A stretch of 64,000 nt of DNA from Synechococcus sp. GTDB taxonomy: Bacteria > Cyanobacteriota > Cyanobacteriia > PCC-6307 > Cyanobiaceae. The notes beneath the pieces were generated by a model. That model saw only the letters and a list, made by a program, of their open reading frames with translations. It did no database searches and was not told the DNA's origin. Numbering within the stretch: the first letter of the stretch is position 1; each line of letters starts with the position of its first letter. Shown here piece after piece: positions 18,925 through 59,567 of this stretch. The DNA lies in assembly GCA_047285535.1 (NCBI GenBank), contig JBJBDC010000001.1, forward strand, positions 96,136 to 160,135, given 5' to 3'. Both the position numbers and the translations under genes were made by a program.

Positions 18925-19989
<1,065 letters not shown>

Positions 19990-23366: not shown

Positions 23367-23385
23367 CTCCTGTTGCCCAACCGGA

Positions 23386-44000: not shown

Positions 44001-47000
44001 GATGAGGAAAGCGCCAGAGATATCGAGGCTGTTGCTAGCGGAGGCGTGATCGCCATCGGCATCGGTGATGGTGTCAGTGCGTGTGATGCTGAGGACGTTG
44101 TTGTTGAAGGAGAGTTGATCGCCTGTGCCTGATTTGCTGGGGTCTGAATGTTGTAGATCCTGAGAGGAAGAGAAAGTGGCTTGGCCGGATGTTGGATCGA
44201 GAGTGATTTGAAGAGCGTTGGATCCGTTTGGGTTAGGAGAGTTTGAGTTGCCAACAAGCCCGACGACGTTGTCTCCGGATTGGAAGAGGAAGATGTGATT
44301 GCCGTTGTGATCCTGGAGTCCAGAATCAACGCCATTGTGATTTAAAGAGAAAGAGAATGCGGTTGTGAGGGAGGCATTTTGATCGACGGCATTGGAGTTT
44401 CCAGTGGAGAAATTGGAGGAGAAGTTATGGGAAGCAGCGCCATTGATGCCGCCTTGTTCAGTGACAACAAAGTCAGGAATTGTGCCTGTGGTGGCAGGTG
44501 GAGTAATGGATGGAGCGGTGTCATTGATGAGGAAAGCGCCAGAGATATCGAGGCTGTTGCTAGCGGAGGCGTGATCGCCATCGGCATCGGTGATGGTGTC
44601 AGTGCGTGTGATGCTGAGGACGTTGTTGTTGAAGGAGAGTTGATCGCCTGTGCCTGATTTGCTGGGGTCTGAATGTTGTAGATCCTGAGAGGAAGAGAAA
44701 GTGGCTTGGCCGGATGTTGGATCGAGAGTGATTTGAAGAGCGTTGGATCCGTTTGGGTTAGGAGAGTTTGAGTTGCCAACAAGCCCGACGACGTTGTCTC
44801 CGGATTGGAAGAGGAAGATGTGATTGCCGTTGTGATCCTGGAGTCCAGAATCAACGCCATTGTGATTTAAAGAGAAAGAGAATGCGGTTGTGAGGGAGGC
44901 ATTTTGATCGACGGCATTGGAGTTTCCAGTGGAGAAATTGGAGGAGAAGTTATGGGAAGCAGCGCCATTGATGCCGCCTTGTTCAGTGACAACAAAGTCA
45001 GGAATTGTGCCTGTGGTGGCAGGTGGAGTAATGGATGGAGCGGTGTCATTGATGAGGAAAGCGCCAGAGATATCGAGGCTGTTGCTAGCGGAGGCGTGAT
45101 CGCCATCGGCATCGGTGATGGTGTCAGTGCGTGTGATGCTGAGGACGTTGTTGTTGAAGGAGAGTTGATCGCCTGTGCCTGATTTGCTGGGGTCTGAATG
45201 TTGTAGATCCTGAGAGGAAGAGAAAGTGGCTTGGCCGGATGTTGGATCGAGAGTGATTTGAAGAGCGTTGGATCCGTTTGGGTTAGGAGAGTTTGAGTTG
45301 CCAACAAGCCCGACGACGTTGTCTCCGGATTGGAAGAGGAAGATGTGATTGCCGTTGTGATCCTGGAGTCCAGAATCAACGCCATTGTGATTTAAAGAGA
45401 AAGAGAATGCGGTTGTGAGGGAGGCATTTTGATCGACGGCATTGGAGTTTCCAGTGGAGAAATTGGAGGAGAAGTTATGGGAAGCAGCGCCATTGATGCC
45501 GCCTTGTTCAGTGACAACAAAGTCAGGAATTGTGCCTGTGGTGGCAGGTGGAGTAATGGATGGAGCGGTGTCATTGATGAGGAAAGCGCCAGAGATATCG
45601 AGGCTGTTGCTAGCGGAGGCGTGATCGCCATCGGCATCGGTGATGGTGTCAGTGCGTGTGATGCTGAGGACGTTGTTGTTGAAGGAGAGTTGATCGCCTG
45701 TGCCTGATTTGCTGGGGTCTGAATGTTGTAGATCCTGAGAGGAAGAGAAAGTGGCTTGGCCGGATGTTGGATCGAGAGTGATTTGAAGAGCGTTGGATCC
45801 GTTTGGGTTAGGAGAGTTTGAGTTGCCAACAAGCCCGACGACGTTGTCTCCGGATTGGAAGAGGAAGATGTGATTGCCGTTGTGATCCTGGAGTCCAGAA
45901 TCAACGCCATTGTGATTTAAAGAGAAAGAGAATGCGGTTGTGAGGGAGGCATTTTGATCGACGGCATTGGAGTTTCCAGTGGAGAAATTGGAGGAGAAGT
46001 TATGGGAAGCAGCGCCATTGATGCCGCCTTGTTCAGTGACAACAAAGTCAGGAATTGTGCCTGTGGTGGCAGGTGGAGTAATGGATGGAGCGGTGTCATT
46101 GATGAGGAAAGCGCCAGAGATATCGAGGCTGTTGCTAGCGGAGGCGTGATCGCCATCGGCATCGGTGATGGTGTCAGTGCGTGTGATGCTGAGGACGTTG
46201 TTGTTGAAGGAGAGTTGATCGCCTGTGCCTGATTTGCTGGGGTCTGAATGTTGTAGATCCTGAGAGGAAGAGAAAGTGGCTTGGCCGGATGTTGGATCGA
46301 GAGTGATTTGAAGAGCGTTGGATCCGTTTGGGTTAGGAGAGTTTGAGTTGCCAACAAGCCCGACGACGTTGTCTCCGGATTGGAAGAGGAAGATGTGATT
46401 GCCGTTGTGATCCTGGAGTCCAGAATCAACGCCATTGTGATTTAAAGAGAAAGAGAATGCGGTTGTGAGGGAGGCATTTTGATCGACGGCATTGGAGTTT
46501 CCAGTGGAGAAATTGGAGGAGAAGTTATGGGAAGCAGCGCCATTGATGCCGCCTTGTTCAGTGACAACAAAGTCAGGAATTGTGCCTGTGGTGGCAGGTG
46601 GAGTAATGGATGGAGCGGTGTCATTGATGAGGAAAGCGCCAGAGATATCGAGGCTGTTGCTAGCGGAGGCGTGATCGCCATCGGCATCGGTGATGGTGTC
46701 AGTGCGTGTGATGCTGAGGACGTTGTTGTTGAAGGAGAGTTGATCGCCTGTGCCTGATTTGCTGGGGTCTGAATGTTGTAGATCCTGAGAGGAAGAGAAA
46801 GTGGCTTGGCCGGATGTTGGATCGAGAGTGATTTGAAGAGCGTTGGATCCGTTTGGGTTAGGAGAGTTTGAGTTGCCAACAAGCCCGACGACGTTGTCTC
46901 CGGATTGGAAGAGGAAGATGTGATTGCCGTTGTGATCCTGGAGTCCAGAATCAACGCCATTGTGATTTAAAGAGAAAGAGAATGCGGTTGTGAGGGAGGC

Positions 47001-50000
47001 ATTTTGATCGACGGCATTGGAGTTTCCAGTGGAGAAATTGGAGGAGAAGTTATGGGAAGCAGCGCCATTGATGCCGCCTTGTTCAGTGACAACAAAGTCA
47101 GGAATTGTGCCTGTGGTGGCAGGTGGAGTAATGGATGGAGCGGTGTCATTGATGAGGAAAGCGCCAGAGATATCGAGGCTGTTGCTAGCGGAGGCGTGAT
47201 CGCCATCGGCATCGGTGATGGTGTCAGTGCGTGTGATGCTGAGGACGTTGTTGTTGAAGGAGAGTTGATCGCCTGTGCCTGATTTGCTGGGGTCTGAATG
47301 TTGTAGATCCTGAGAGGAAGAGAAAGTGGCTTGGCCGGATGTTGGATCGAGAGTGATTTGAAGAGCGTTGGATCCGTTTGGGTTAGGAGAGTTTGAGTTG
47401 CCAACAAGCCCGACGACGTTGTCTCCGGATTGGAAGAGGAAGATGTGATTGCCGTTGTGATCCTGGAGTCCAGAATCAACGCCATTGTGATTTAAAGAGA
47501 AAGAGAATGCGGTTGTGAGGGAGGCATTTTGATCGACGGCATTGGAGTTTCCAGTGGAGAAATTGGAGGAGAAGTTATGGGAAGCAGCGCCATTGATGCC
47601 GCCTTGTTCAGTGACAACAAAGTCAGGAATTGTGCCTGTGGTGGCAGGTGGAGTAATGGATGGAGCGGTGTCATTGATGAGGAAAGCGCCAGAGATATCG
47701 AGGCTGTTGCTAGCGGAGGCGTGATCGCCATCGGCATCGGTGATGGTGTCAGTGCGTGTGATGCTGAGGACGTTGTTGTTGAAGGAGAGTTGATCGCCTG
47801 TGCCTGATTTGCTGGGGTCTGAATGTTGTAGATCCTGAGAGGAAGAGAAAGTGGCTTGGCCGGATGTTGGATCGAGAGTGATTTGAAGAGCGTTGGATCC
47901 GTTTGGGTTAGGAGAGTTTGAGTTGCCAACAAGCCCGACGACGTTGTCTCCGGATTGGAAGAGGAAGATGTGATTGCCGTTGTGATCCTGGAGTCCAGAA
48001 TCAACGCCATTGTGATTTAAAGAGAAAGAGAATGCGGTTGTGAGGGAGGCATTTTGATCGACGGCATTGGAGTTTCCAGTGGAGAAATTGGAGGAGAAGT
48101 TATGGGAAGCAGCGCCATTGATGCCGCCTTGTTCAGTGACAACAAAGTCAGGAATTGTGCCTGTGGTGGCAGGTGGAGTAATGGATGGAGCGGTGTCATT
48201 GATGAGGAAAGCGCCAGAGATATCGAGGCTGTTGCTAGCGGAGGCGTGATCGCCATCGGCATCGGTGATGGTGTCAGTGCGTGTGATGCTGAGGACGTTG
48301 TTGTTGAAGGAGAGTTGATCGCCTGTGCCTGATTTGCTGGGGTCTGAATGTTGTAGATCCTGAGAGGAAGAGAAAGTGGCTTGGCCGGATGTTGGATCGA
48401 GAGTGATTTGAAGAGCGTTGGATCCGTTTGGGTTAGGAGAGTTTGAGTTGCCAACAAGCCCGACGACGTTGTCTCCGGATTGGAAGAGGAAGATGTGATT
48501 GCCGTTGTGATCCTGGAGTCCAGAATCAACGCCATTGTGATTTAAAGAGAAAGAGAATGCGGTTGTGAGGGAGGCATTTTGATCGACGGCATTGGAGTTT
48601 CCAGTGGAGAAATTGGAGGAGAAGTTATGGGAAGCAGCGCCATTGATGCCGCCTTGTTCAGTGACAACAAAGTCAGGAATTGTGCCTGTGGTGGCAGGTG
48701 GAGTAATGGATGGAGCGGTGTCATTGATGAGGAAAGCGCCAGAGATATCGAGGCTGTTGCTAGCGGAGGCGTGATCGCCATCGGCATCGGTGATGGTGTC
48801 AGTGCGTGTGATGCTGAGGACGTTGTTGTTGAAGGAGAGTTGATCGCCTGTGCCTGATTTGCTGGGGTCTGAATGTTGTAGATCCTGAGAGGAAGAGAAA
48901 GTGGCTTGGCCGGATGTTGGATCGAGAGTGATTTGAAGAGCGTTGGATCCGTTTGGGTTAGGAGAGTTTGAGTTGCCAACAAGCCCGACGACGTTGTCTC
49001 CGGATTGGAAGAGGAAGATGTGATTGCCGTTGTGATCCTGGAGTCCAGAATCAACGCCATTGTGATTTAAAGAGAAAGAGAATGCGGTTGTGAGGGAGGC
49101 ATTTTGATCGACGGCATTGGAGTTTCCAGTGGAGAAATTGGAGGAGAAGTTATGGGAAGCAGCGCCATTGATGCCGCCTTGTTCAGTGACAACAAAGTCA
49201 GGAATTGTGCCTGTGGTGGCAGGTGGAGTAATGGATGGAGCGTCATCATGAATTGTTAATGATGAGCCAAGATCAATTTGAGCACTTGATGTTGCACTGT
49301 CTCCATCCTTATCTGTAATTGTATCAGTACGTCTTAGCGCTAATAATCCCGGAGATAGATGTATCTCTTCATCAGTATTTGTGGGGTCTGGATGGATGAC
49401 CGCTCGTTCGCTGGTGAAAGTGATGTCTCCTGCTTGAGTTGTGCTGATCTTTAAAGCTTCTTTGCCTGTTTTTTCAAGTATTCCTGTGATATTCCCGTTT
49501 TGAGTATTGACATGCAACAGGATTCGTTCCCCAGTTTCGCTATCGATTAATCCAGAGAACACTCCATCTTTGCTGAGATTCAGCTCATAACTTGTTTTAA
49601 ATGTTCCTGATCCATCGGCGCCGAATTGATGGCTGCCGCTGAAGAGCGAGGCGAAGGATTGCGTGGAGGTGCCGCCGGCTTGCCCGATGAAGGTTTCATC
49701 GACCCCAAGGACTGGGGGATGGCCATTTGTCGTGAGCTGAAGGCTAGGGGCGTCGTCTTTGAAGTGGAACACCTGGCCGATGCCGATTGTTGCCGAAGCA
49801 CTGTCCCCACCAGCGCTCACAGCGGTGCCGGTGATTGTGATCAGGTTTGGGTTCTTGAGTGTGATGCTTTCATCTGTGTTGTTTGGATCGGGGTGAACAA
49901 TCGAGCGCAGTTGATCCAGCTCAATGTTCCCTACTTGATCCGTTGTGATGTGAAAGCCTTCCAGCCCACCAGGCGTCCGTCCGCTGATGCTTCCATCAGA

Positions 50001-50804
50001 GTTATGGAACAACAGCAGGTGTTGACCCGTGGCTTCATCCACAAGGCCACTGTCGGTGCCTGGCTGAACCACTCCGATCTTGAAGGTCATGCCACCGATG
50101 CCTTTGCCGTTCACCCCGTAGGTGGCGGAGAAGTAGGCGCCGAAGTTTGCGGTTGCATCTGTGGTGAGATCGGTTTCATCAACCGTGAGATCTTTTGGTG
50201 CCCCTGCCACGGTGATTGTGGCGCGATCAGGACTAGGCCCAGGACCTGGCTTAGGAGTCTCTCCAGGTGAATGGGGGTCGTGATTAGATTTTGGAGACCC
50301 CCCGGGGGTGTTGTGATCGGGTGTTTGTCTGCCAGAAGGACCGGGGAATGGGACATTTCCTTCTCCTCCTCCAGGCCTTTCTGCTCCGAGCACAGCAGGG
50401 CCATCAATTTGCGAATCAACTGCGAAGGGCGTTTGAAAGTCCTGGGTACCTAAGTCGCTGTCGCTTCCAATACTTCCACTACGTTCTGGATTATGCGGTA
50501 CACCTTCACTTGTAAGGGTGGGATTTTGTTGTTCGGGTAGTGCGCTACTAATCCATGGCCGATCGAGTGACGCATCGGGAAGGGAGCTGTTCCCCGATGG
50601 CGCTTGTTGTTCGTAATTTTGCCTGTTGTTGCTTGCTCCCTCGGGTAGGGATGTGAACACATCATCTCGCTGTTCGCGATCACCGTCGTGAAGATTGGCG
50701 AGATCGACGAGTCTCTTTAGTTTTTCTTCAAGAAGTTGACTTTGATCATTGTTATTCAGGATCCTAAAGGCCTCGTTTTGCGCAGCTGCGTTGTCGAGAG
50801 CCAT
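32046..50804 (-). CDS. Giant (6252 aa) repetitive surface protein or adhesin with DUF5801/T1SS-143-like repeats and a vWA domain; probable T1SS substrate
   Basis: Uninterrupted 18.76-kb ORF; about 30 repeats of ~175 aa, nearly all with a TDxDGD motif; MIDAS DYSGS...T...TDG; no signal peptide; adjacent ABC/ABC/HlyD genes. Confidence 0.9.
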   Translation of the reverse strand: MALDNAAAQNEAFRILNNNDQSQLLEEKLKRLVDLANLHDGDREQRDDVFTSLPEGASNNRQNYEQQAPSGNSSLPDASLDRPWISSALPEQQNPTLTSEGVPHNPERSGSIGSDSDLGTQDFQTPFAVDSQIDGPAVLGAERPGGGEGNVPFPGPSGRQTPDHNTPGGSPKSNHDPHSPGETPKPGPGPSPDRATITVAGAPKDLTVDETDLTTDATANFGAYFSATYGVNGKGIGGMTFKIGVVQPGTDSGLVDEATGQHLLLFHNSDGSISGRTPGGLEGFHITTDQVGNIELDQLRSIVHPDPNNTDESITLKNPNLITITGTAVSAGGDSASATIGIGQVFHFKDDAPSLQLTTNGHPPVLGVDETFIGQAGGTSTQSFASLFSGSHQFGADGSGTFKTSYELNLSKDGVFSGLIDSETGERILLHVNTQNGNITGILEKTGKEALKISTTQAGDITFTSERAVIHPDPTNTDEEIHLSPGLLALRRTDTITDKDGDSATSSAQIDLGSSLTIHDDAPSITPPATTGTIPDFVVTEQGGINGAASHNFSSNFSTGNSNAVDQNASLTTAFSFSLNHNGVDSGLQDHNGNHIFLFQSGDNVVGLVGNSNSPNPNGSNALQITLDPTSGQATFSSSQDLQHSDPSKSGTGDQLSFNNNVLSITRTDTITDADGDHASASNSLDISGAFLINDTAPSITPPATTGTIPDFVVTEQGGINGAASHNFSSNFSTGNSNAVDQNASLTTAFSFSLNHNGVDSGLQDHNGNHIFLFQSGDNVVGLVGNSNSPNPNGSNALQITLDPTSGQATFSSSQDLQHSDPSKSGTGDQLSFNNNVLSITRTDTITDADGDHASASNSLDISGAFLINDTAPSITPPATTGTIPDFVVTEQGGINGAASHNFSSNFSTGNSNAVDQNASLTTAFSFSLNHNGVDSGLQDHNGNHIFLFQSGDNVVGLVGNSNSPNPNGSNALQITLDPTSGQATFSSSQDLQHSDPSKSGTGDQLSFNNNVLSITRTDTITDADGDHASASNSLDISGAFLINDTAPSITPPATTGTIPDFVVTEQGGINGAASHNFSSNFSTGNSNAVDQNASLTTAFSFSLNHNGVDSGLQDHNGNHIFLFQSGDNVVGLVGNSNSPNPNGSNALQITLDPTSGQATFSSSQDLQHSDPSKSGTGDQLSFNNNVLSITRTDTITDADGDHASASNSLDISGAFLINDTAPSITPPATTGTIPDFVVTEQGGINGAASHNFSSNFSTGNSNAVDQNASLTTAFSFSLNHNGVDSGLQDHNGNHIFLFQSGDNVVGLVGNSNSPNPNGSNALQITLDPTSGQATFSSSQDLQHSDPSKSGTGDQLSFNNNVLSITRTDTITDADGDHASASNSLDISGAFLINDTAPSITPPATTGTIPDFVVTEQGGINGAASHNFSSNFSTGNSNAVDQNASLTTAFSFSLNHNGVDSGLQDHNGNHIFLFQSGDNVVGLVGNSNSPNPNGSNALQITLDPTSGQATFSSSQDLQHSDPSKSGTGDQLSFNNNVLSITRTDTITDADGDHASASNSLDISGAFLINDTAPSITPPATTGTIPDFVVTEQGGINGAASHNFSSNFSTGNSNAVDQNASLTTAFSFSLNHNGVDSGLQDHNGNHIFLFQSGDNVVGLVGNSNSPNPNGSNALQITLDPTSGQATFSSSQDLQHSDPSKSGTGDQLSFNNNVLSITRTDTITDADGDHASASNSLDISGAFLINDTAPSITPPATTGTIPDFVVTEQGGINGAASHNFSSNFSTGNSNAVDQNASLTTAFSFSLNHNGVDSGLQDHNGNHIFLFQSGDNVVGLVGNSNSPNPNGSNALQITLDPTSGQATFSSSQDLQHSDPSKSGTGDQLSFNNNVLSITRTDTITDADGDHASASNSLDISGAFLINDTAPSITPPATTGTIPDFVVTEQGGINGAASHNFSSNFSTGNSNAVDQNASLTTAFSFSLNHNGVDSGLQDHNGNHIFLFQSGDNVVGLVGNSNSPNPNGSNALQITLDPTSGQATFSSSQDLQHSDPSKSGTGDQLSFNNNVLSITRTDTITDADGDHASASNSLDISGAFLINDTAPSITPPATTGTIPDFVVTEQGGINGAASHNFSSNFSTGNSNAVDQNASLTTAFSFSLNHNGVDSGLQDHNGNHIFLFQSGDNVVGLVGNSNSPNPNGSNALQITLDPTSGQATFSSSQDLQHSDPSKSGTGDQLSFNNNVLSITRTDTITDADGDHASASNSLDISGAFLINDTAPSITPPATTGTIPDFVVTEQGGINGAASHNFSSNFSTGNSNAVDQNASLTTAFSFSLNHNGVDSGLQDHNGNHIFLFQSGDNVVGLVGNSNSPNPNGSNALQITLDPTSGQATFSSSQDLQHSDPSKSGTGDQLSFNNNVLSITRTDTITDADGDHASASNSLDISGAFLINDTAPSITPPATTGTIPDFVVTEQGGINGAASHNFSSNFSTGNSNAVDQNASLTTAFSFSLNHNGVDSGLQDHNGNHIFLFQSGDNVVGLVGNSNSPNPNGSNALQITLDPTSGQATFSSSQDLQHSDPSKSGTGDQLSFNNNVLSITRTDTITDADGDHASASNSLDISGAFLINDTAPSITPPATTGTIPDFVVTEQGGINGAASHNFSSNFSTGNSNAVDQNASLTTAFSFSLNHNGVDSGLQDHNGNHIFLFQSGDNVVGLVGNSNSPNPNGSNALQITLDPTSGQATFSSSQDLQHSDPSKSGTGDQLSFNNNVLSITRTDTITDADGDHASASNSLDISGAFLINDTAPSITPPATTGTIPDFVVTEQGGINGAASHNFSSNFSTGNSNAVDQNASLTTAFSFSLNHNGVDSGLQDHNGNHIFLFQSGDNVVGLVGNSNSPNPNGSNALQITLDPTSGQATFSSSQDLQHSDPSKSGTGDQLSFNNNVLSITRTDTITDADGDHASASNSLDISGAFLINDTAPSITPPATTGTIPDFVVTEQGGINGAASHNFSSNFSTGNSNAVDQNASLTTAFSFSLNHNGVDSGLQDHNGNHIFLFQSGDNVVGLVGNSNSPNPNGSNALQITLDPTSGQATFSSSQDLQHSDPSKSGTGDQLSFNNNVLSITRTDTITDADGDHASASNSLDISGAFLINDTAPSITPPATTGTIPDFVVTEQGGINGAASHNFSSNFSTGNSNAVDQNASLTTAFSFSLNHNGVDSGLQDHNGNHIFLFQSGDNVVGLVGNSNSPNPNGSNALQITLDPTSGQATFSSSQDLQHSDPSKSGTGDQLSFNNNVLSITRTDTITDADGDHASASNSLDISGAFLINDTAPSITPPATTGTIPDFVVTEQGGINGAASHNFSSNFSTGNSNAVDQNASLTTAFSFSLNHNGVDSGLQDHNGNHIFLFQSGDNVVGLVGNSNSPNPNGSNALQITLDPTSGQATFSSSQDLQHSDPSKSGTGDQLSFNNNVLSITRTDTITDADGDHASASNSLDISGAFLINDTAPSITPPATTGTIPDFVVTEQGGINGAASHNFSSNFSTGNSNAVDQNASLTTAFSFSLNHNGVDSGLQDHNGNHIFLFQSGDNVVGLVGNSNSPNPNGSNALQITLDPTSGQATFSSSQDLQHSDPSKSGTGDQLSFNNNVLSITRTDTITDADGDHASASNSLDISGAFLINDTAPSITPPATTGTIPDFVVTEQGGINGAASHNFSSNFSTGNSNAVDQNASLTTAFSFSLNHNGVDSGLQDHNGNHIFLFQSGDNVVGLVGNSNSPNPNGSNALQITLDPTSGQATFSSSQDLQHSDPSKSGTGDQLSFNNNVLSITRTDTITDADGDHASASNSLDISGAFLINDTAPSITPPATTGTIPDFVVTEQGGINGAASHNFSSNFSTGNSNAVDQNASLTTAFSFSLNHNGVDSGLQDHNGNHIFLFQSGDNVVGLVGNSNSPNPNGSNALQITLDPTSGQATFSSSQDLQHSDPSKSGTGDQLSFNNNVLSITRTDTITDADGDHASASNSLDISGAFLINDTAPSITPPATTGTIPDFVVTEQGGINGAASHNFSSNFSTGNSNAVDQNASLTTAFSFSLNHNGVDSGLQDHNGNHIFLFQSGDNVVGLVGNSNSPNPNGSNALQITLDPTSGQATFSSSQDLQHSDPSKSGTGDQLSFNNNVLSITRTDTITDADGDHASASNSLDISGAFLINDTAPSITPPATTGTIPDFVVTEQGGINGAASHNFSSNFSTGNSNAVDQNASLTTAFSFSLNHNGVDSGLQDHNGNHIFLFQSGDNVVGLVGNSNSPNPNGSNALQITLDPTSGQATFSSSQDLQHSDPSKSGTGDQLSFNNNVLSITRTDTITDADGDHASASNSLDISGAFLINDTAPSVDPSKVGTLSPLVTDDDTLNVNAATSLSSLFSSAFTPGADGTQSIAYSLDLSAQDANSGLHALNPSGGPIQGPEILLHRDSNGVIHGYPSGGKSDGSEDLFTITIDGKNNLVLDQIKPIWQDNTSSNNEQTLLTALPNTLKITASITDQDGDSASTSIDASSCIFAFQDSGPSVDPSKVGTLSPLVTDDDTLNVNAATSLSSLFSSAFTPGADGTQSIAYSLDLSAQDANSGLHALNPSGGPIQGPEILLHRDSNGVIHGYPSGGKSDGSEDLFTITIDGKNNLVLDQIKPIWQDNTSSNNEQTLLTALPNTLKITASITDQDGDSASTSIDASSGIFAFQDSGPSVDPSKVGTLSPLVTDDDTLNVNAATSLSSLFSSAFTPGADGTQSIAYSLDLSAQDANSGLHALNPSGGPIQGPEILLHRDSNGVIHGYPSGGKSDGSEDLFTITIDGKNNLVLDQIKPIWQDNTSSNNEQTLLTALPNTLKITASITDQDGDSASTSIDASSGIFAFQDSGPSVDPSKVGTLSPLVTDDDTLNVNAATSLSSLFSSAFTPGADGTQSIAYSLDLSAQDANSGLHALNPSGGPIQGPEILLHRDSNGVIHGYPSGGKSDGSEDLFTITIDGKNNLVLDQIKPIWQDNTSSNNEQTLLTALPNTLKITASITDQDGDSASTSIDASSGIFAFQDSGPSVDPSKVGTLSPLVTDDDTLNVNAATSLSSLFSSAFTPGADGTQSIAYSLDLSAQDANSGLHALNPSGGPIQGPEILLHRDSNGVIHGYPSGGKSDGSEDLFTITIDGKNNLVLDQIKPIWQDNTSSNNEQTLLTALPNTLKITASITDQDGDSASTSIDASSGIFAFQDSGPSVDPSKVGTLSPLVTDDDTLNVNAATSLSSLFSSAFTPGADGTQSIAYSLDLSAQDANSGLHALNPSGGPIQGPEILLHRDSNGVIHGYPSGGKSDGSEDLFTITIDGKNNLVLDQIKPIWQDNTSSNNEQTLLTALPNTLKITASITDQDGDSASTSIDASSGIFAFQDSGPSISMGNASVSTTQHPQTSTPPSTGTTTITTTTIFDAHQNIGLVLDYSGSMGWSNGHQDPDNANTHSKIHQQLLASAHLIKQAFENAGYKVTTSQNGLTDLNDWKLEPLAGHTPGNVHLGAAIFGASAQTQSVTIDDTNYGRPHILASINNLLHNVKISGTNHTEAWKAAQNITTSWQQSNISDQHHTPSGAEIKTDTNMVIMTDGETSKGQDMISSNSYVLTTYNEGQHQYGLNNISGWNSRNKATSELKITYTDSAGIQHEQKLTRAQIDGMINDHNNPLGTRGHGYSNSHAVRDNNGDIIGWLGFPKVIDPNINHPHHHHPNPIEANPLVFTPNEASGITITSIENNKSSGPNNEITPIMSSGFNSQGAQLSHNLDQALKTLDQQVGHETPNVIGVGIVDRTNNSIGSQLQSLFKGSLPDGSSFEQVNSHDTLDGSLSQQIQHAVQQSFQNVDVHLDFNFDPGSDDDLAATSLQNNGVVEFTLEQKSTLLGTGGHSPVQAFAATFGGNQNTSNVKDLGNGEFEIKINGLGTFTINTGNTVLSSGSHNGTIDFKADPGVSIGRNLDLTLSIKDADGDTKSVNFTLPKFNTNVTPSQTQHDEPDQNGFTADISVIANDALASAQADSDTEATLAALISLGLKTDHDDVDLSQSTQDDGSQLITRTIHTDQGDILETITDPQNGNAPSLQLDVSGLDADTQKDLQATIQAQTSSSASESKPGQLDSVLSDATQSPPAIDGHSLADAISDLQQLDADAIAALNGQDTSTNSADESSLSGDAALTPLPQDPSDVPVTSMEDAFASPQQTDDDVMAPPDLSDTSQTAAPLPDNSTQDQDLSLLNT
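34573..37683 (-). repeat. Six tandem copies of a 519-bp (173-aa) unit, repeat type B
   Basis: Shadow ORFs recur every 519 bp (34639 to 37234); one substitution seen, at 37196. Confidence 0.95.
37686..49242 (-). repeat. Twenty-two tandem copies of a 525-bp (175-aa) unit, repeat type A
   Basis: Identical shadow ORFs recur every 525 bp (38035 to 49060); no differences noticed between copies. Confidence 0.95.
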
Positions 50805-50940
50805 GGTGACTTGGAACAGACATTTTGTTTCAACATATAGACCTCCTATGAGCGATGCTCAGAATTAACAAGAATTTTCGCTAGGGGTTAATGCTGGTCT
50901 TACAGGGTGATAGCCGTCATTATTCAAATCAAGATATTTA

Positions 50941-52581
50941 ATGGGCGCTTCCATGAATATTAAGACGGTATTGAATAGTCTTTCAAGGCAATCATTCCTT
51001 ACGTCATTGTTGGCACCGTTTCATTCGCGTGATGTTCGGATTGTGGTTGCCGCATCGGTTGCGATCAATCTGATTGTCCTAGCGATTCCTCTTTACATCA
51101 ATCGCATTTACACATCAGTCGTTCCTCAGCAGGCCAGCGACAGCCTCGCAGGCATCACTCTGCTTCTGGCTGCAGTTTTAGTTCTTGATGTTGTTCTCAA
51201 GGTGTTGCGTGCTTGGGTGGTGACTTGGCTGGCAGCCTCGACTGAACATCGTTTGCGAATGGTTGCCGTTCGTTCTGTGCTCGGGAGTGAGCCGAATGCC
51301 GTGCGCACACAACCTCTCAAGGCCAGGATGGCTCAGTTGCGCAGTCCAACTGTGTTGCGCAATCAACTTGAGCAGCAATGGCTGGTGCGTTATGTGGACC
51401 TTCCCTTCTCCTTGGTGTACTTGCTTTTTCTCGGGTTGATTGGCGGCTGGTTGATGATTCCCCCACTGGTTTTGGCACCTTTTTTTGTGCTTGTGGCACG
51501 GCGTGCCGCTTCCGACGTGGTGGCTAGCACACGAGCGCATCACGATCTGGAGGTCAGCCGAAATCAGATGGTGGTTAACGGGCTTGGACTTTCCCCCACG
51601 ATCAAGACACTCAATCTGGAGGGCTTTTTGATTCGACGGCTCGAACCCTTGCAGGAATCTCTTAGCCGGAGAAGTTATGAAAAAGAATCCGCAACGGCAA
51701 GACTTCAGAATCTCTCTGCCTTGTTTTCTCAACTCAACCAACTGCTCATCGTGAGTCTTGGTGCTTGGCTGGTGATACAGCAAGATCTTTCGACAGGTGC
51801 TCTTGCTGCCTGCACCTTGCTCAGTGGTCAAGTTGCAGCTCCTCTTGGCAAATTATTTGCAGCTGATGGTCAGCAGGCCGCTCTTGAGCAGGCCAATTAT
51901 GACTATCAGCAACTGATTGATCTTCCTCAGGAACAGAATCTTCTCGTCGGAGCTGATCAAACACCTATTGACACAACCTTGTCGTTTCTTGGCAAAGAAC
52001 TGCTACCTGGACAGCTCATGGTCCTTGTCGGTGGGCATCCTGGGCAGTCCACTGCGTTGCTTGATGCCATCCAGGTGGCTGAGGACAATCCTGTCTTAGG
52101 TCTTGCATTTGGAAAGCAATCGCTCTCGACATTCCGTAAAACCTGGCTGAGACGTTCCTTGGCTCGATTGAAATCCTCGCCAGAGCCATTCCGCGGCACC
52201 CTGCTTGAGTCGTTGACAGGCTTTGAGTTAAATACCCGATCTTCTGAAGTTGTGGCCTTATGTCAAGAGCATGGGGTGTCGTCTCTTATTCAGGCTCTGC
52301 CCAGGGGCTACAACACCACGATTGGAGAAAGCCAAGATTTTCCCCTTTCCCTCGGGTTGCGTTTTCGCATCAGTGTGATTCAGGCCTTGTTGGACAAGCC
52401 TTCGGTGTTGCTTTTGGATGGCACCTTCCCACAGCTCACTCCTGACTGTCTGAGTTGGTTTCTGTCTCTGAAGATTCCTTGTTCCAGACTGATCGCTTTG
52501 CAAAGGGCCATTCCAGGACTCCCCTCTGAAATGACCTGTCTTCAGTGGAACGGTGATCGGTTGCAGGAGGTGGCGTTGTGA
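50941..52581 (+). CDS. T1SS-type ABC transporter (TMD plus degenerate, shortened NBD)
   Basis: HlyB-like TMD (INLIVLAIPLY, DLPFSLVY, LSTGALAACTLL), ALPRGYNTTIGE; Walker A region reads GGHPGQST. Confidence 0.85.
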   Translation: MGASMNIKTVLNSLSRQSFLTSLLAPFHSRDVRIVVAASVAINLIVLAIPLYINRIYTSVVPQQASDSLAGITLLLAAVLVLDVVLKVLRAWVVTWLAASTEHRLRMVAVRSVLGSEPNAVRTQPLKARMAQLRSPTVLRNQLEQQWLVRYVDLPFSLVYLLFLGLIGGWLMIPPLVLAPFFVLVARRAASDVVASTRAHHDLEVSRNQMVVNGLGLSPTIKTLNLEGFLIRRLEPLQESLSRRSYEKESATARLQNLSALFSQLNQLLIVSLGAWLVIQQDLSTGALAACTLLSGQVAAPLGKLFAADGQQAALEQANYDYQQLIDLPQEQNLLVGADQTPIDTTLSFLGKELLPGQLMVLVGGHPGQSTALLDAIQVAEDNPVLGLAFGKQSLSTFRKTWLRRSLARLKSSPEPFRGTLLESLTGFELNTRSSEVVALCQEHGVSSLIQALPRGYNTTIGESQDFPLSLGLRFRISVIQALLDKPSVLLLDGTFPQLTPDCLSWFLSLKIPCSRLIALQRAIPGLPSEMTCLQWNGDRLQEVAL

Positions 52582-54716
52582 TCTCCCGCGATGTGTTCTT
52601 CCAGAGGCTCTCTGAAAGTGAATCTTCATCCGCCAGGCTTCTGCCAAAGCTTCTTGATGCTCTGGCATGGTCAGGTGAACTTGTTCAGCTGCGCAATGCT
52701 CTGAGTGGTAGTCCGCTCCACATGGATGGAGTTGATCTTCTCAATACTCTTGCCAATCTTGGTTTCCGATGGGATGTGCGGCGTTTTCGTGGTGTACTTA
52801 CCCCTGAACGTCTACCTCCTCTCGACTTCCCTGTTCTGATTCGCTCGCAGTTCAGCAGTTCTTTTCAGTTGGTCGAAAATGAAGAGGAGCTTCGTCAGGC
52901 TTTGCCGAACCTGCGTCGTCTTTTTGTCTATAGCTTTCGATTCGAGCCGCAGAGATTGGCAGAACAGCGCCAGTGGTTTCAAGCGCTTGTGCTCCGTTTT
53001 CGCGGCAGCATCGCTGAGCTTTACGTGATGAGCCTGCTGATCGCTCTGCTCACGTTAGTTCTGCCCTTTTACATTCGAGCGGTTTACAACCTGGAGATTC
53101 CCGGCGGTCAGATGGGCGATTTGCTGGGGCTTCTTCCCTTTGCACTTCTCGGTGTTCTGCTGCAGGTTTGGTTGACAAACCGCCGTCAGGTTCGGCTTGC
53201 TGATCTTGGCGCTGAGCTTGACATCACGATCAGTATTCGAGTGCTTGAGAAGCTGATGTTGTTGCGTTTACCACAGTTGGAGCGGTACACGCCTCTCTCG
53301 CTTGCGAGTCGTCTACGCAGTTTTCAGGGTCTTCGTTCCTATGTCACAGGGCCTTTGGCTCAAGCCGCTTTGGACCTCCCTTTCATCGTGATTTATCTGA
53401 TCGCGATAGCAGTGATGAGTGTTCCTCTCATGGTGCTCACATTGGTGATGGTCCTAGTTTGTTTTGGTGGAGTTTATTTGGTGGGTCGGATTGCTCGCTC
53501 TATCCAGCAGCCTTTGAGCCGTAACCCCTCCAATCTTGAGCCATTACTTCTCGATCTTCTTGATCATTACGAGCGAATCAAGCGGACCGGTATGGAACGG
53601 ATCTGGCATGCACGCATCGAAAGGGCATCGTCCGAAAGCGCTATTCAAGGTCTTGGTCCGATGCGCCTGCAACAGTTGTTGGCCATTCTCACCGGAGAGT
53701 TTTCTCAGCTCACGGGGGCACTGGTGCTTGCTACGGGCGCAGGGCTCGCGATTGCTGGTGGCAGCGGTATCGAACTGGGCACCATGATTGCGGCAATGTT
53801 TTTCGTCTGGCGTGTGTTTCGGCCGATCCAGATGGGTTATCAGGCCCTCAGTCGCTGGTCGCAGATCAAGCCCAACCTTGATCAACTCAACCGTTTCATG
53901 GCGGCTTCAGATGTTGAGCCCAGTACAACAGTCAGCCAACCCTGGGTTCTGCCAATGCCGGCTGGTCAGGTGGAATTTCAAAATGTCACCTTGCGCCTCA
54001 ATGCTCTGCAGGAACCATCGTTGACACAGGTCAATTTCAAGATAGATGCGGGCAATCTCGTTGTGATTACGGGCCCTGAGGGAGCAGGTACGTCTTCGGT
54101 TCTTCGCTTGCTGGATGGGCAGATTCAACCTGGAAGTGGTGTGATTCGCATCGATGGAACTGACTCGCGTCAGTTTCCATTGATGCAGTTACGACAATCC
54201 ATTGATTTCCTGTCGGACCGTCCCGGTGTGTTCTCGGCCACGTTGCGCGAAAACATGCGAATCGCTGATCCATTTGCTGACGATGCCTTAATCATCAAGA
54301 GCCTTGAATCCATGGGGCTTCAAGTTCTCCTTGAAAACTCCGGATTAGATCGACCTCTTGGAATGAGCGGTAGGGATGCTCTGCCTCTGCATCAACTTCA
54401 AGCCGTTGCGATTGCAAGGATGTTGCTGAAGGAGCAGTCCATTTTCCTTCTTGATCATCCGTTCCGCCTGCTTGATCAACAAGGCTCTGATGCGCTCCTC
54501 CGCCTTTTTGAACAGCGTCGAGGTCAGATCACCATGATCGTTGCTTCAGATGAGCCTCGTTTGCTTGAAATTGCAGACCAAATCATTTTGATGAAGGCAG
54601 GCACTGTGAGTTTCTCTGGTACACCTCAGGATCTAATGGCTGCTCAGAAAAAAGCTGCTATGCAACAAGCTGCAATGGCTGCGATGGGTGGTGGCTCGTC
54701 GCTAGGAACGTCATGA
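52578..54716 (+). CDS. T1SS-type ABC transporter (N-terminal C39-like domain, TMD, degenerate NBD)
   Basis: DLPFIVIYL, VEFQNVTL, GPEGAGTS, VFSATLRENM, AIARML, FLLDHP; GTGA overlap with the upstream ABC gene. Confidence 0.88.
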   Translation: MISRDVFFQRLSESESSSARLLPKLLDALAWSGELVQLRNALSGSPLHMDGVDLLNTLANLGFRWDVRRFRGVLTPERLPPLDFPVLIRSQFSSSFQLVENEEELRQALPNLRRLFVYSFRFEPQRLAEQRQWFQALVLRFRGSIAELYVMSLLIALLTLVLPFYIRAVYNLEIPGGQMGDLLGLLPFALLGVLLQVWLTNRRQVRLADLGAELDITISIRVLEKLMLLRLPQLERYTPLSLASRLRSFQGLRSYVTGPLAQAALDLPFIVIYLIAIAVMSVPLMVLTLVMVLVCFGGVYLVGRIARSIQQPLSRNPSNLEPLLLDLLDHYERIKRTGMERIWHARIERASSESAIQGLGPMRLQQLLAILTGEFSQLTGALVLATGAGLAIAGGSGIELGTMIAAMFFVWRVFRPIQMGYQALSRWSQIKPNLDQLNRFMAASDVEPSTTVSQPWVLPMPAGQVEFQNVTLRLNALQEPSLTQVNFKIDAGNLVVITGPEGAGTSSVLRLLDGQIQPGSGVIRIDGTDSRQFPLMQLRQSIDFLSDRPGVFSATLRENMRIADPFADDALIIKSLESMGLQVLLENSGLDRPLGMSGRDALPLHQLQAVAIARMLLKEQSIFLLDHPFRLLDQQGSDALLRLFEQRRGQITMIVASDEPRLLEIADQIILMKAGTVSFSGTPQDLMAAQKKAAMQQAAMAAMGGGSSLGTS

Positions 54717-54757
54717 GTCGTTGTTGATCCCAGCGCCACAAGTTTTCTATCGCTTCT

Positions 54758-56134
54758 TTGACGATGTCGAGCTCTTCATCTACGTCTCCTTCTTCAACAA
54801 TGACTGATTCAAAGTCGCAGTCCGAGGCCTCTTTATGGCAAATGCAGGCTGATGAAACAGACCAAGCCTTTGGGCATGGTCGTCGTGCCGAAGCTTTGTC
54901 TCTTGAAGCGGGTCAAGTCCCTCCAAATTTGACTCGATGGTTGCTTGGTACTACGGCTGTGATGGCTGGATCTGTTCTTGTTTCGGCTTTGATTCCCATT
55001 CAGAATTACGTTGTGGCCTCAGGGGAGATAGAGCCAGCTGGAGAGATCCAGAAGGTGCAGCATTTAGAAGGCGGAATTATTCGTGCTCAGTTAGTTGAGG
55101 AGGGTGAGAAGGTTCGAAGTGGTGAAGTATTGCTCAAGCTCAGTGAAGGGCAGATTGGATCACAGCAGCAGCAGACGGCGACGCGTGTCACCAATCTCAC
55201 GTTGGAACAGCGTGAGCTACGTAAAGCGCTCGGTCAGGAGGCTCTCAATACTGATGTTCCTACTCCATCGTCACCATCTGAAGAGGTCGCGAGGGCCTTT
55301 TCTGATTTGCTCAAGCAAAAAGCACTTGATATTCAACGCCAAATTGATGTTGCTGATCAGCGTCTTGCCACTCTTCAGGCCAAACGAGAGGAATATCTCG
55401 ATGAAGTCGCTCTTCTGAAGGAGCAAACCAAATCCTATGAATTCCTCGATAATCAAGGGGCAATTTCTCATAACGATGTACTAGAGGCTGAACGCAGAAT
55501 CGCTTCAACCGAAACACTGCTTGCCGAACTCGATGGCACGATTAAAGAAACTGAGACGCAACGATTTGAGCTTCGTTCCAAGTTGCGTACCGATATTCTT
55601 GAGCAATTGGCTGATGTCACGAGTGAAAAAGCAGAGTTGCAGAGCGTTCTCGGTGAGCAACTTGATGCAGTAGAGCGTTTACAAGTGCGCTCCCCAGTTG
55701 ATGGAATTGTCAAGTCCTATACGGTGAAAACGCTGGGCGGTGTTATTGCGCCTGGCAGTGTTGTTGCAGAAGTTGTGCCTGTAGGTGATCAACTTGAAGG
55801 ATTTCTACGTGTCAAACCTGCTGATATTGGCAATGTTCAGAAAGGCCAGAGGGTGCAGCTCAAGGTGTTGGCTTATGACTACAGCCGTTACGGAACAATC
55901 CCAGGTGTAGTTAGATCAATTTCTGCGAGCACGTTTCAAGATGAAAAGACTGGCGAGCCCTATTACAAAGTCCGTGCTGCATTGTCGCGTGATTATGCAG
56001 GCAAGAATGAAGGCTTAAATCTTTTGGTTCCTGGTATGACTCTTACGGCTGACATCCTCACGGATCGTACTAATTTGCTGATGTATTTATTGGGGCCTAT
56101 CAGGCATGGGCTTGGCAACGCTCTTCACGAATAA
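54758..56134 (+). CDS. HlyD family type I secretion periplasmic adaptor (MFP)
   Basis: VQHLEGGII, VRSPVDGIV, YDYSRYGTIPG, LVPGMTLTADI. Confidence 0.95.
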   Translation: MTMSSSSSTSPSSTMTDSKSQSEASLWQMQADETDQAFGHGRRAEALSLEAGQVPPNLTRWLLGTTAVMAGSVLVSALIPIQNYVVASGEIEPAGEIQKVQHLEGGIIRAQLVEEGEKVRSGEVLLKLSEGQIGSQQQQTATRVTNLTLEQRELRKALGQEALNTDVPTPSSPSEEVARAFSDLLKQKALDIQRQIDVADQRLATLQAKREEYLDEVALLKEQTKSYEFLDNQGAISHNDVLEAERRIASTETLLAELDGTIKETETQRFELRSKLRTDILEQLADVTSEKAELQSVLGEQLDAVERLQVRSPVDGIVKSYTVKTLGGVIAPGSVVAEVVPVGDQLEGFLRVKPADIGNVQKGQRVQLKVLAYDYSRYGTIPGVVRSISASTFQDEKTGEPYYKVRAALSRDYAGKNEGLNLLVPGMTLTADILTDRTNLLMYLLGPIRHGLGNALHE

Positions 56135-56383: not shown

Positions 56384-57772
56384 TTAGTCGAGATCAGGCA
56401 TTGCCAAGGTGGGTTCTGCTTGACGATCGATTCCTTTTTCAAAACCGGCAGCCGCCGCGCGGGCCCGGCCTGCATGCCAGAGGTGACCAACCAGGAAGAA
56501 GAAGGCGAGCACGAACTGAGCTGCACCCAACCACTGGCGAAGGTTCACGAAGTTCACCGAGTTTGGTTCGGTGATAATGCCTCCAACAGAGTTGAGTGAG
56601 GCATTAGGGGCGTGAGTCATATATTCAGCGGCCCGGCGAACCTGCCAAGGCTGAATATCATTCTGAAGTTTGTCGAGACTGAGGCCATTGGGTCCGCGTA
56701 ACGGCTCCAGCCAAGGACCACGAAAATCCCAGAAACGCATGGTCTCTCCACCAAAGATGATCTCACCCGTCGGGGAGCGCATCAGGTACTTACCAAGACC
56801 TGTTGGGCCCATGGCCGAACCGATGTTGGCTCCCATTCGTTGGTCACGGACTAGAAAAGTGAAACTCTGGGCTTGGGAGGCTTCTGCGTTGGTTGGACCC
56901 CAGAATTCGGAGGGATAGGCGGTGTTGTTGAACCAGATAAAGGCAGAACAAACGAAACTCATGAAGCTGAGAGCTCCAAGGCTGTAGCTCAGATAAGCCT
57001 CACCGTTCCAGATGAAGGCGCGTCGCACCCAGCCGAAAGGCTTGGTAATGACATGCCAAATTCCACCGAAAATGCAGGTCAGGCCGAGCCAGATGTGGCC
57101 ACCGATGATGTCCTCCATGGAGTTCACACCAATGATCCAGCCCTCACCTCCAAAGGGAGCTCTGAAGAGATAACCGAAAATGACACCCGGATCGAGGGTG
57201 GGATTGGTGATCAAACGAACGTCACCGCCTCCGGGTGCCCAAGTGTCATAGACACCACCGAAAAACATCGCCTTGAAGACGAGAAGCAGACAACCCACTC
57301 CTAGAAGAATCAAGTGATAGCCAATGATGTTGGTCATCTGATTCTTGTCTCTCCAGTCCTGGGAGAAGAACGTGGAGTAGTTCTCGAGAATCTCAGGACC
57401 ACGAATAGCGTGATAGAGACCTCCTAAACCAAGAACGGCTGAGCTGATCAGGTGCAGAACACCGACGACAAAGAAGGGGAAGAGATCAGTGACCTCACCG
57501 CCAGGACCAACGCCATAGCCAAGGGTGGCGACGTGGGGCATGCAAATGAACCCCTGCTCGTACATAGGCTTGTCGAAGGTGAAATGACTCACCTCAAAAA
57601 GCATCATGGCGCCAGCCCAGAACACCATCAGACCAGCGTGGGCGACGTGGGCACCCAGCAGACGGCCAGACAGATTGATTAGACGAGCGTTACCGGCCCA
57701 CCAGGCAAAGCCGGTGGAGTCGAGGTCTTTACCGCCAGTGGCGATAAGACCGGAATTAAAGGGCGTTTCCAC
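56384..57772 (-). CDS. psbC: Photosystem II CP43 protein (GTG start overlapping the end of psbD)
   Basis: [44 protein letters not shown]. Confidence 0.99.
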
Positions 57773-58811
57773 GGGGCAGAACCTCTTCAGGGAAGACGAA
57801 GTTTTCGTGCGGCTGGTCAGCCGGTGCCATCCAGGCACGCAGACCTTCATTCAGAAGAACATTCTTCGTGTAGAAGGTTTCAAATTCAGGATCCTCAGCA
57901 GCGCGAATTTCCTGTGATACGAAGTCGTAGGCACGCAAGTTGAACGCTAAGCCGATGATGCCGATGGAGCTGGTCCACATCCCCATCACTGGCACAAACA
58001 ACATGAAGAAGTGCAGCCAACGCTTGTTGGAGAACGCAATTCCGAAGATTTGGCTCCAGAAACGGTTGGCGGTGACCATGGAATAGGTCTCTTCTTCCTG
58101 GGTGGGTTCAAACGCCTTAAAGGTGTTCGACTGTTCACCATCCTCAAACAATGTGTTTTCCACCGTGGCGCCATGAATGGCGCAAAGCAGTGCACCGCCA
58201 AGAATGCCGGCCACACCCATCATGTGAAATGGATTCAGGGTCCAGTTATGAAAGCCCTGGAGGAACAGCAGGAAGCGGAAAATTGCAGCCACACCAAAGG
58301 AGGGTGCAAAGAACCAGCTGCTCTGTCCCAGGGGATACATCAGGAAGACACTGACGAACACCGCAATCGGACCGGAGAAGGCGATTGCGTTGTAAGGACG
58401 AATACCGACCAGACGGGCAATTTCGAACTGACGCAGCATGAAGCCGATCAAGGCGAAGGCGCCGTGGAGTGCAACGAACGACCAGAGGCCTCCAAGCTGA
58501 CACCAGCGGACAAAATCACCCTGGGCTTCCGGGCCCCAGAGCAAGAGCAGACTGTGACCCATCGCATCAGCGGGGGAGGACACAGCAGCAGTCAAAAAGT
58601 TGCAACCCTCGAGATACGACGACGCAATGCCGTGGGTATACCAGGAAGTTACAAACGTGGTTCCCGTTAACCAGCCACCAATCGAGAGGTAGGCCGTGGG
58701 GAAGAGAAGAATGCCGGACCAGCCGACAAAAACGAAACGGTCGCGTTTAAGCCAGTCATCGAGGACGTCGAACCATCCCCGCTGCGGCATGCGACCTGCA
58801 GCGATCGTCAT
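57756..58811 (-). CDS. psbD: Photosystem II D2 protein
   Basis: [16 protein letters not shown] through [12 protein letters not shown]. Confidence 0.99.
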
Positions 58812-59030
58812 GAGTTGAACGGTGCGGTTAACCCGCATGCAGTGGTTTCCTGGCGACCTTAACAATGTTGTTGGGTGGTTCGGGGTTTAGATGGCTCAGC
58901 TGAAACCCGTTGTATCGGAATGAATCTTCTGGCTTTCTTTTGATTTGCTGCTTCGTTTCGTGGCAGTGCTTTGTCGAGAGCGCCATTCAAAGGGTTCGCG
59001 GTCCACAATGGACTTTGATTTCGGGCTTAG

Positions 59031-59567
59031 ATGACCGCTGACCTGCTCGAACAATCCGTCCTCGGCTCGCGCCGGCTTTCGAACATTTTTGTTGCTTCGA
59101 TGGTCACCATCGGAGGCCTTGGGTTCCTGTTCGCTTCTCTCTCCAGCTATTTAGGCCGGGACCTGCTTCCACTCGGTCATCCAGCCGGATTGGTATTTGT
59201 TCCCCAGGGCTTGGTCATGGGGCTTTACAGCCTCGCGGCAGCTTTTCTCGCCACGTATCTCTGGGCTGTCATCGCTATTGATGTTGGTGCAGGTAGTAAT
59301 CGTTTTGATCGCTCCGCTGGTGTGGTGACTATTTCAAGGCGTGGATTTCGTAAGCCCATCAGCGTGGAGATTCCTTTGAAGGACATCCAGGCGGTGAAAG
59401 TTGAGGTGAGAGATGGATTCAATACACGTCGGCGCGTCTCTCTTCGCGTTCAGGGCCGACGAGATATGCCCCTAACCCGCGTGGGAGAACCTCTCCCCCT
59501 GGCGCAATTGGAACAGGATGGGGCTGAGCTGGCTCGTTTTTTAGGTGTGAATCTCGAAGGACTCTGA
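59031..59567 (+). CDS. ycf4: Photosystem I assembly protein Ycf4
   Basis: [30 protein letters not shown]. Confidence 0.96.

Follow-up and report, generated by a model that had tools for sequence, protein, structure and literature searches.

A type I secretion module of picocyanobacteria in which both ABC subunits appear to have lost their ATP sites

Can a type I secretion module be kept by selection when neither of its ATP-binding cassette (ABC) subunits seems able to hydrolyze ATP? The question is raised by a locus of Synechococcus sp. (GenBank assembly GCA_047285535.1) within a 64,000-nucleotide stretch of contig JBJBDC010000001.1 (positions 96,136 to 160,135 of the forward strand), referred to below as the window; coordinates are those of the window unless stated otherwise. 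Two adjacent plus-strand genes, here called ABC1 (50941-52581, 546 amino acids) and ABC2 (52578-54716, 712 amino acids), are followed on the same strand by a gene for a HlyD-family type I periplasmic adaptor (54758-56134, 458 amino acids, matching TIGR01843). Divergent from them lies a giant gene (32046-50804, minus strand) for a DUF5801 repeat protein of 6252 amino acids, the putative cargo. A preliminary description had called both ABC subunits ATPase-dead. We consider that this triad probably represents, in picocyanobacteria, a variant of a two-subunit type I module (ABC1/ABC2) that serves giant surface proteins and has not been described before; both nucleotide-binding domains (NBDs) of this variant would be pseudo-enzymes.

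State of the two nucleotide-binding domains

Motifs were called by phmmer alignment to solved exporters (ABCB1, plant ABCB1/19, PrtD 5l22, HlyB 7sgr/8dck and PCAT1). Five features were scored: the Walker A Lys, the Q-loop Gln, the LSGGQ signature, the Walker B Glu and the H-loop His. None of the five is kept in ABC1 and none in ABC2; every motif call of the preliminary description was borne out. ABC1 consists of a six-helix exporter membrane domain and a shortened pseudo-NBD (residues ~338-546) that lacks the first NBD strand and, between the D-loop and the H-loop, some 26 residues. Its Walker A remnant is GGHPGQST, without Lys (52030-52053), its signature remnant LSLGL (52345-52359) and its Walker B remnant LLLDG, with Gly for Glu (52408-52422); the H-loop position reads IALQR, without His (52492-52506). 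The Walker A and H-loop columns fall in the most degenerate stretches of ABC1 and are aligner-dependent. ABC2 has a C39-like N-terminal domain (residues ~1-135), which is absent from ABC1, a membrane domain (~140-450) and a full-length pseudo-NBD (~465-700). Here the Walker A remnant is GPEGAGTS (54072-54095), with Lys replaced by Thr and an acidic residue at P-loop position 3; the Q-loop is FLSD, with Asp for Gln (54207-54218), LPLHQ stands in place of LSGGQ (54381-54395), Walker B is FLLDH, with His for Glu (54444-54458), and the H-loop is VASDE, with no His at either candidate column (54540-54554). The aromatic residue of the A-loop is gone as well (TLRLN). All these remnants are on the plus strand.

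Profile searches agree with this picture of exporter membrane domains joined to altered NBDs. PF00664 matches both proteins over its gathering score (E=5e-13 in ABC1, E=1e-8 in ABC2), while PF00005 matches ABC2 clearly and ABC1 with only 16.8 bits, under its cut-off of 25. The top NCBIfam family of both is TIGR03375, the LssB/LapB subfamily of type I secretion ABCs, with 307.9 bits for ABC2 and 190.2 for ABC1, far under its cut-off of 693.1. The adaptor scores 276.9 bits with TIGR01843 (cut-off 208.65) and is the sole match above that cut-off in the genome. The full membrane domains and the normal adaptor of the preliminary description are thus confirmed.

Is the degeneracy a general property of this genome? 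At least 13 of the 20 exporter-type ABC open reading frames aligned from it have all five motifs, and because these others are intact the degeneracy is specific to ABC1 and ABC2. On the alignments, ATP hydrolysis by either protein is very unlikely.

The intact frames, the overlap of the two ABC genes and the length of the divergent spacer, all noted in the preliminary description, were confirmed. The overlap is a GTGA, in which the GTG start of ABC2 overlaps the ABC1 stop as read directly in the sequence, and the two genes are translationally coupled. ABC1 could also start at Met5, which gives the 542-residue form found in databases (twin P0124). The 136-bp region between ABC1 and the giant gene (50805-50940) is presumed to be a shared promoter region; a promoter and terminator scan of it gave no convincing consensus promoter, and sites were fewer than in shuffled sequences.

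How far does the loss extend among relatives? A search with the ABC2 protein gave 193 relatives; 41 were aligned, picked across the identity range from 120 listed, and 37 of the 41 are picocyanobacterial. None of these 37 has the Walker B Glu, the Q-loop Gln, LSGGQ or the H-loop His (Asp is found there in 33, Glu in four), and only three have the Walker A Lys. All four outgroup relatives are canonical at the five motifs. In ABC2 relatives hardly any variation is seen at the Walker A glycines or the Walker B Asp, and replacement motifs are conserved: Walker B has become D-[HQS]-P-F, and the former H-loop [ST]-D.

A scan of loci, with one genome taken per species, gave 33 loci from records titled Synechococcus, Cyanobium, Vulcanococcus, Aphanothece or 'Prochlorococcaceae'. 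ABC1 is directly upstream of ABC2 in 32 of them, the exception being L018, where the contig begins inside ABC2; HlyD is directly downstream in 32, the exception being L016, where the contig stops inside ABC2. By ABC2 identity to the window copy the loci fall into a close clade (48-87%) and a distant clade (27-32%), the latter including the marine strain WH 8017. Close-clade ABC2 sequences taken from the loci have the Lys in 1/8, the Glu in 1/8 and the His in 0/8; two acidic residues have been gained in this clade, one as the third residue of the P-loop (GxEGxG) and the other, a conserved Asp or Glu, where the H-loop His would be. For ABC1, not one of 30 sequences (the window and 29 loci) has Lys, Gln, Glu or His at the aligned columns, a second alignment of 33 picocyanobacterial rows gave the same motif loss, and in the distant clade no P-loop is recognizable at all. 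This is an accessory module. Among 201 genomes sampled from the family, 26 have ABC1 at E<=1e-30; these fall in 11 of the 64 genera, and within the window's own genus one of seven other genomes has it.

Two loci have broken frames. In L021, from a metagenome-assembled genome, ABC1 is split over two frames (214-2552), and in L038, an isolate draft, HlyD is split into two open reading frames (12126-13625); these may be either sequencing errors or rare real inactivations. It is also of note that L017, L039 and L044 carry clearly picocyanobacterial copies of the module on contigs titled Chitinophaga pinensis or Acidovorax caeni, so the bin labels of these public records are probably wrong.

The window copy was compared with six close-clade loci to see how the genes are constrained. 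Synonymous sites are saturated (proportion of synonymous differences, pS, 0.69-0.86). The corresponding nonsynonymous proportion, pN, is 0.24-0.51 for the pseudo-NBDs, 0.09-0.40 for the membrane domains and 0.10-0.25 for HlyD. Because their pN is far under the saturated pS, yet above that of the membrane domains and HlyD, the pseudo-NBDs are constrained, though less than the rest. Against L013, for instance, identity is 0.77 in the membrane domain of ABC1 and 0.55 in its pseudo-NBD, the values for ABC2 being 0.88 and 0.66. As a control, a canonical ABC exporter of 582 amino acids from this genome was compared with its orthologs in five of the related loci: its NBD identity is about that of its membrane domain, higher in four of the five and lower in one (for example 0.71 in the NBD against 0.63 in the membrane domain). 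These comparisons indicate that the motif loss is kept under purifying selection and that the strongest constraint is on the ABC2 membrane domain. The preliminary description had named the outcome that would point to decay, namely close homologs with canonical motifs and relaxed selection on these copies; this was rejected, since the orthologs are degenerate too and pN is far below pS.

An old pair of partners and its relatives

Are ABC1 and ABC2 partners, or neighbors by chance? A profile of ABC1 orthologs was run against 1.84 billion representative proteins, and the best 150 matches were considered. Twenty-four of these are proteins of 1257-1437 amino acids that match twice and are ABC1-ABC2 fusions in the gene order of the window; the named ones come from Azospirillum, Rhodospirillales and Magnetococcales records and are called 'peptidase domain-containing ABC transporter'. 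In 23 of the 24 the two halves are separated by the ABC2 N-terminal domain. A tree of 121 half-transporters (quick search, LG+G4, SH-aLRT support) puts the ABC1-type halves in one group (support 100) and the ABC2-type halves in another (99), fusion halves included, and the picocyanobacterial ABC1 (98) and ABC2 (100) sequences are each monophyletic. The ABC1 and ABC2 trees mirror each other, with the same split into close and distant clades. Because the two are fused head to tail in Alphaproteobacteria and their trees are congruent, we conclude that they are partners, an old heterodimer of co-evolved subunits descended from ancient paralogs.

The motif status of the fusions was read from hmmalign alignments to a small NBD model, an approach that can shift individual columns where the sequence is degenerate. 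All of Lys, Gln, Glu and His are kept in the second NBD of 15 of the 24 fusions and in the first NBD of seven; in every fusion at least one half retains one or more of the four. Of the 48 NBDs, 47 have a non-canonical signature (LPxGxRQ type). The usual state of the superfamily is thus one degenerate and one competent NBD. Since the second NBD is usually intact in the fusions, the doubly dead picocyanobacterial state is derived, with the window's clade as its extreme. In one fusion, P0219, the Walker A of the first NBD is GVEGPGSS, without Lys and with Glu at position 3. This is the GxEGxG[TS]S pattern of close-clade ABC2, though in the other paralog, and a change of the GxEGxG type may be a recurrent route to a silent P-loop.

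The assignment of the ABC2 N-terminal domain as C39-like comes from hhalign alone, which aligned it with the N-termini of 11 C39/LapB-type ABCs (probability 93.7%, E=2e-7, 89 columns); Pfam found no C39 match in this domain or in the linkers of the fusions. The fusion consensus has a Cys at a column that we take to be the catalytic position of C39 peptidases, and in the window ABC2 has Leu there.

Which known system does the module resemble most? By family score and type of cargo, the closest named one is LapB/LapC/LapE with LapA (TIGR03375). The two share a C39-like N-terminal domain (on ABC2), a HlyD-type adaptor above cut-off and a giant repeat adhesin as cargo, and the cargo of a relative, L030, carries LapA, DUF5801, VWA and RTX domains. 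The module differs from the LapB system in having two unlike ABC subunits, where LapB is a homodimer, in scoring far under the family cut-off, in the loss of the catalytic motifs and in having no TolC/LapE gene of its own. The alphaproteobacterial fusions are true homologs with the same order of parts, the C39-like domain between the halves included; unlike the window pair they are single polypeptides, most with a second NBD that keeps the four residues counted above. We found no paper on these fusions.

Heterodimeric exporters (TM287/288, TmrAB, ABCC proteins and CFTR) also have two unlike halves, with a non-catalytic site in a structural or regulatory role (PMC7756269, PMC8277102). They keep one working consensus site (PMC7756269), whereas the window pair has none in either half. 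In the MARTX system (RtxB, RtxD, RtxE and TolC) a single very large cargo depends on two ABC genes, their operon diverges from the cargo operon, and tolC is elsewhere (PMC3034196). The preliminary description had drawn this parallel. It holds only in so far as there are two ABC genes. The true relatives are the ABC1/ABC2 pairs fused in Alphaproteobacteria, and MARTX is set apart, by its description, in its gene order (rtxB-D-E, the adaptor between the ABC genes) and in that both its ABCs are described as ATPases. A literature search gave no ABC exporter and no type I system in which both sites are degenerate, PMC8277102 being covered in its first part. Nor was a printed description found of this variant of type I secretion with two dead sites.

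Within the cyanobacteria, sync_1214 of Synechococcus sp. CC9311 (P0228 in our set) is a distant-clade ABC1, 42% identical to the copy in L043. The ABC genes for swimming motility in Synechococcus WH8102 were considered as possible relatives and set aside, as searches on locus tags yielded nothing to support this. The sync_1214-sync_1217 region belongs to the distant clade, which is ~27-30% identical to the window's proteins and whose ABC2 has the Walker A Lys, Asp-Asp at Walker B and no His. HlyD has been suggested to secrete sync_1217, an RTX-domain barrier protein, in CC9311 (PMC7701263, citing Stuart et al. 2013). This was the one paper that a literature search on the sync locus tags gave, and of these tags it mentions sync_1217 only.

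Cargo genes and genomic setting

Within the giant gene a 525-bp repeat occurs 22 times (98-100% identity) and a 519-bp repeat six times (100%), at 34573-48999 of the window. Near-identical repeats of this kind suggest recent expansion or gene conversion, and they also put the copy number in the assembly at risk. GC skew is about +0.4 throughout the gene. Neither end of the protein has an NCBIfam match. A DxSxS-like motif was seen by eye, yet the last 1499 residues gave no Pfam VWA match and a vWA domain is not claimed. The C-terminus is an acidic, disordered tail that ends in DQDLSLLNT.

The preliminary description had tied the ABC genes to the giant gene, and the relatives bear out this tie: next to the triad stand large genes of adhesin type, drawn from different families. 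The gene upstream of and divergent from the close-clade triads encodes a large surface-type protein in all cases, of varying kind: DUF5801 in L013, Cadherin-like/Big_9 in L014 and L017, and proteins of 796 and 1067 amino acids without a domain assignment in L019 and L020. Of the distant-clade loci, 22 have DNA downstream of HlyD; in 16 of these a long open reading frame starts there within 500 bp, and 15 of the 16 frames reach the contig end. Two examples are the cargo of L030 (2286 amino acids, LapA+DUF5801+VWA+RTX) and that of L043 (more than 2776 amino acids, DUF7507/DUF11).

Do these unrelated proteins have anything in common? Five complete cargo C-termini were compared (window 32046-32500, minus strand; L017:652-1100; L019:5804-6250; L020:5018-5500; L030:20250-20723). 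All are long acidic tails rich in Pro, Ser, Thr and Gln, with Asp and Glu making up 15-22% of the last 100 residues, on bodies that are unrelated. By eye, they also share an LAxAVxEL-like stretch some 60-110 residues before the end and a terminal D-x-[DN]-L..L.T-like motif. These common features make the tail a candidate for a secretion signal peculiar to this family of pumps.

As had been stated, the window contains no tolC: no OEP/TolC match was found inside it, and the nearest lies ~17 kb past it. In the genome as a whole there are six TolC-like open reading frames with paired OEP domains, and its canonical exporter-type ABCs include complete ABC-adaptor-TolC clusters. The match nearest to the window belongs to a second cluster (177004-184110 of the contig, ~17-24 kb past the window) of a TolC-like protein (505 amino acids), a 452-residue frame that is possibly an adaptor, and two tandem ABCs (721 and 723 amino acids). 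The first of these ABCs has Leu for the Walker B Glu, no His and LCNSQ as signature; the second keeps Lys, Gln and Glu and has lost His. This pair shows the classical pattern of one degenerate subunit and falls in another clade than ABC1/ABC2.

The flanks of L013, L014, L017, L019 and L020 were scanned with Pfam (37 of 61 open reading frames) and held no further conserved ABC gene; an AAA_21 gene is present in one of the five only. The canonical 582-residue ABC found near distant-clade loci was considered as a partner and rejected, as it is a core gene in conserved synteny, beside which the module is inserted, and the genome of the window has it without a distant-clade module.

Regarding the chromosomal site, the module lies beside the same genes in the window (56384-59567) and in L013 (15552-18743), namely PF00421 (photosystem II CP43-family) and PF00124 (reaction-center) genes and ycf4, and in the window and L020 it is downstream of the same pair of Ion_trans_2 genes. 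The shared neighbors point to a stable insertion site for the close clade. Elsewhere in the window, a stretch at ~10000-24000 has a GC content of 0.38-0.42 against 0.50-0.56 around it. It encodes several open reading frames without a Pfam match besides an isochorismatase, a hybrid PAS histidine kinase with a receiver domain, GAPDH, a YkuD L,D-transpeptidase and a VTT-domain protein, and is probably a horizontally acquired island.

Competing explanations and what they imply

If the module is what we take it to be, how might it work? The ABC1/ABC2 heterodimer, HlyD and a TolC-like protein encoded elsewhere would form a conduit or dock that takes the 6252-residue protein to the cell surface. The pseudo-NBDs would serve as scaffolds and not as motors, holding the coupling helices and pairing with each other, and together with the C39-like domain they might help to bind or dock the cargo. 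It is conceivable, if speculative, that the two acidic residues of close-clade ABC2, one in the P-loop (position 3) and one in place of the H-loop His, now fill or imitate what was once the phosphate site. ABC1 and ABC2 themselves would hydrolyze no ATP, and some other driving force would be needed for that reason: translocation could be driven by the proton motive force, by repeat modules that fold step by step once they are outside the cell, or by a separate ATPase. Type I secretion is held to depend absolutely on ATP hydrolysis by its ABC component, and the proton motive force is also needed for secretion of HlyA (PMC3034196). With about 30 repeat modules in its chain, the cargo could plausibly be drawn out by a folding ratchet. 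In type I secretion the Ca2+-driven folding of RTX repeats offers a precedent for a ratchet. In its strongest form the proposal is that of a type I machine that moves megadalton surface proteins across both membranes without an ATPase of its own, the ABC fold acting as a cargo-gated channel driven by the proton motive force, by folding or by both; this form we hold only tentatively, as a possibility somewhat on the doubtful side.

Several observations weigh against our reading of the module. All 23 ABC2 sequences derived from distant-clade loci have the Walker A Lys (GxxGxGK[ST]) and Asp-Asp at Walker B, and no His, so ATP binding, as opposed to hydrolysis, may still matter in that part of the family. 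Even in the close clade, 14 of 35 ABC2 sequences have Arg at the Lys position. The canonical ABCs encoded elsewhere in the genome could supply the energy or do the exporting. The cargo of the window has no GGxGxD repeats by count (that of L030 has five), which weakens the case for a classical Ca2+/RTX ratchet. Finally, a crude hydropathy-window screen, which leaves proton coupling possible, found no membrane-embedded acidic or charged residue specific to the picocyanobacterial ABCs.

What else could explain the locus? It is scarcely credible that the genes are decaying remnants, non-functional and being lost. Such decay would fit with pseudo-NBDs that evolve two to three times faster than the membrane domains, with the accessory distribution of the module and with the split frames of L021 and L038, but it would leave unexplained that frames are intact in nearly all 33 loci, that pN is so far under pS and ABC2 membrane-domain identity as high as 0.88, that the subunit trees are congruent with two deep clades, and that new motifs (D[HQS]PF and [ST]D) have become conserved. 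Nor is it at all probable that the altered sites bind, or slowly hydrolyze, ATP or another nucleotide by means of substitute residues. Every nucleotide-contacting motif is altered in the window's proteins, the A-loop aromatic included, distant-clade ABC1 has no P-loop, and the acidic residue conserved at the H-loop position should repel phosphate. The constancy of the Walker A glycines and the Walker B Asp speaks for some such residual use, as do the distant-clade ABC2 sequences with Lys and Asp-Asp and the Arg of the close clade; the Lys position nevertheless varies freely in the 35 close-clade sequences (Arg 14, Thr 10, Ser 9, Lys 1, Ile 1).

The two remaining explanations accept that the sites are dead. 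One supposes an ATPase in trans, the pseudo-ABC heterodimer and HlyD joining a canonical ABC exporter or a soluble ABC ATPase from elsewhere in the genome, for example as non-catalytic protomers of a multi-dimer complex. Candidates are at hand in the intact exporter-type ABCs (at least 13 of 20 aligned), among them tandem pairs beside adaptor and TolC genes. Non-catalytic protomers are conceivable if complexes hold several ABC dimers, and the HlyB/HlyD complex (7sgr, 8dck) reportedly contains several per complex. We nonetheless think this explanation unlikely: the scanned close-clade flanks share no further ABC gene, AAA_21 occurring in a single locus, the 582-residue ABC that neighbors distant-clade loci is a core gene whose synteny is conserved, and the other ABC clusters possess adaptors of their own. 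The other explanation is that the module is no translocator but an envelope-spanning anchor, gate or regulator, the giant protein being exported by a different system. It would account for the disappearance of all the catalytic residues and for conservation that is strongest in the membrane domains and HlyD, and Smith et al. are said to have described in 2018 how giant LapA-type adhesins remain lodged in the secretion channel. It is quite unlikely, given that acidic tails of type I character, ending in similar motifs, are kept on the otherwise unrelated cargo proteins encoded beside the triads, that the C39-like cargo-docking domain is retained, and that no other HlyD of the genome passes the type I cut-off which the module's own exceeds.

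We thus return to the reading of the triad as a two-subunit secretion module with two pseudo-enzymatic NBDs. It would be a natural system, maintained by selection with both ATP sites gone, in widespread freshwater and marine picocyanobacteria, and the module has relatives that stand at intermediate stages of loss. Should the machine indeed be free of an ATPase of its own, the series from Alphaproteobacteria through the distant clade to the close clade would represent the stepwise evolutionary loss of a motor. The module would offer a ready-made test of what drives polypeptides through a type I channel, and of what an NBD does once it no longer binds nucleotide. Giant surface proteins of picocyanobacteria have been linked to avoidance of grazing and phage and to cell-cell interaction (PMC4949707, PMC2441476), and the module bears on how these organisms build them.

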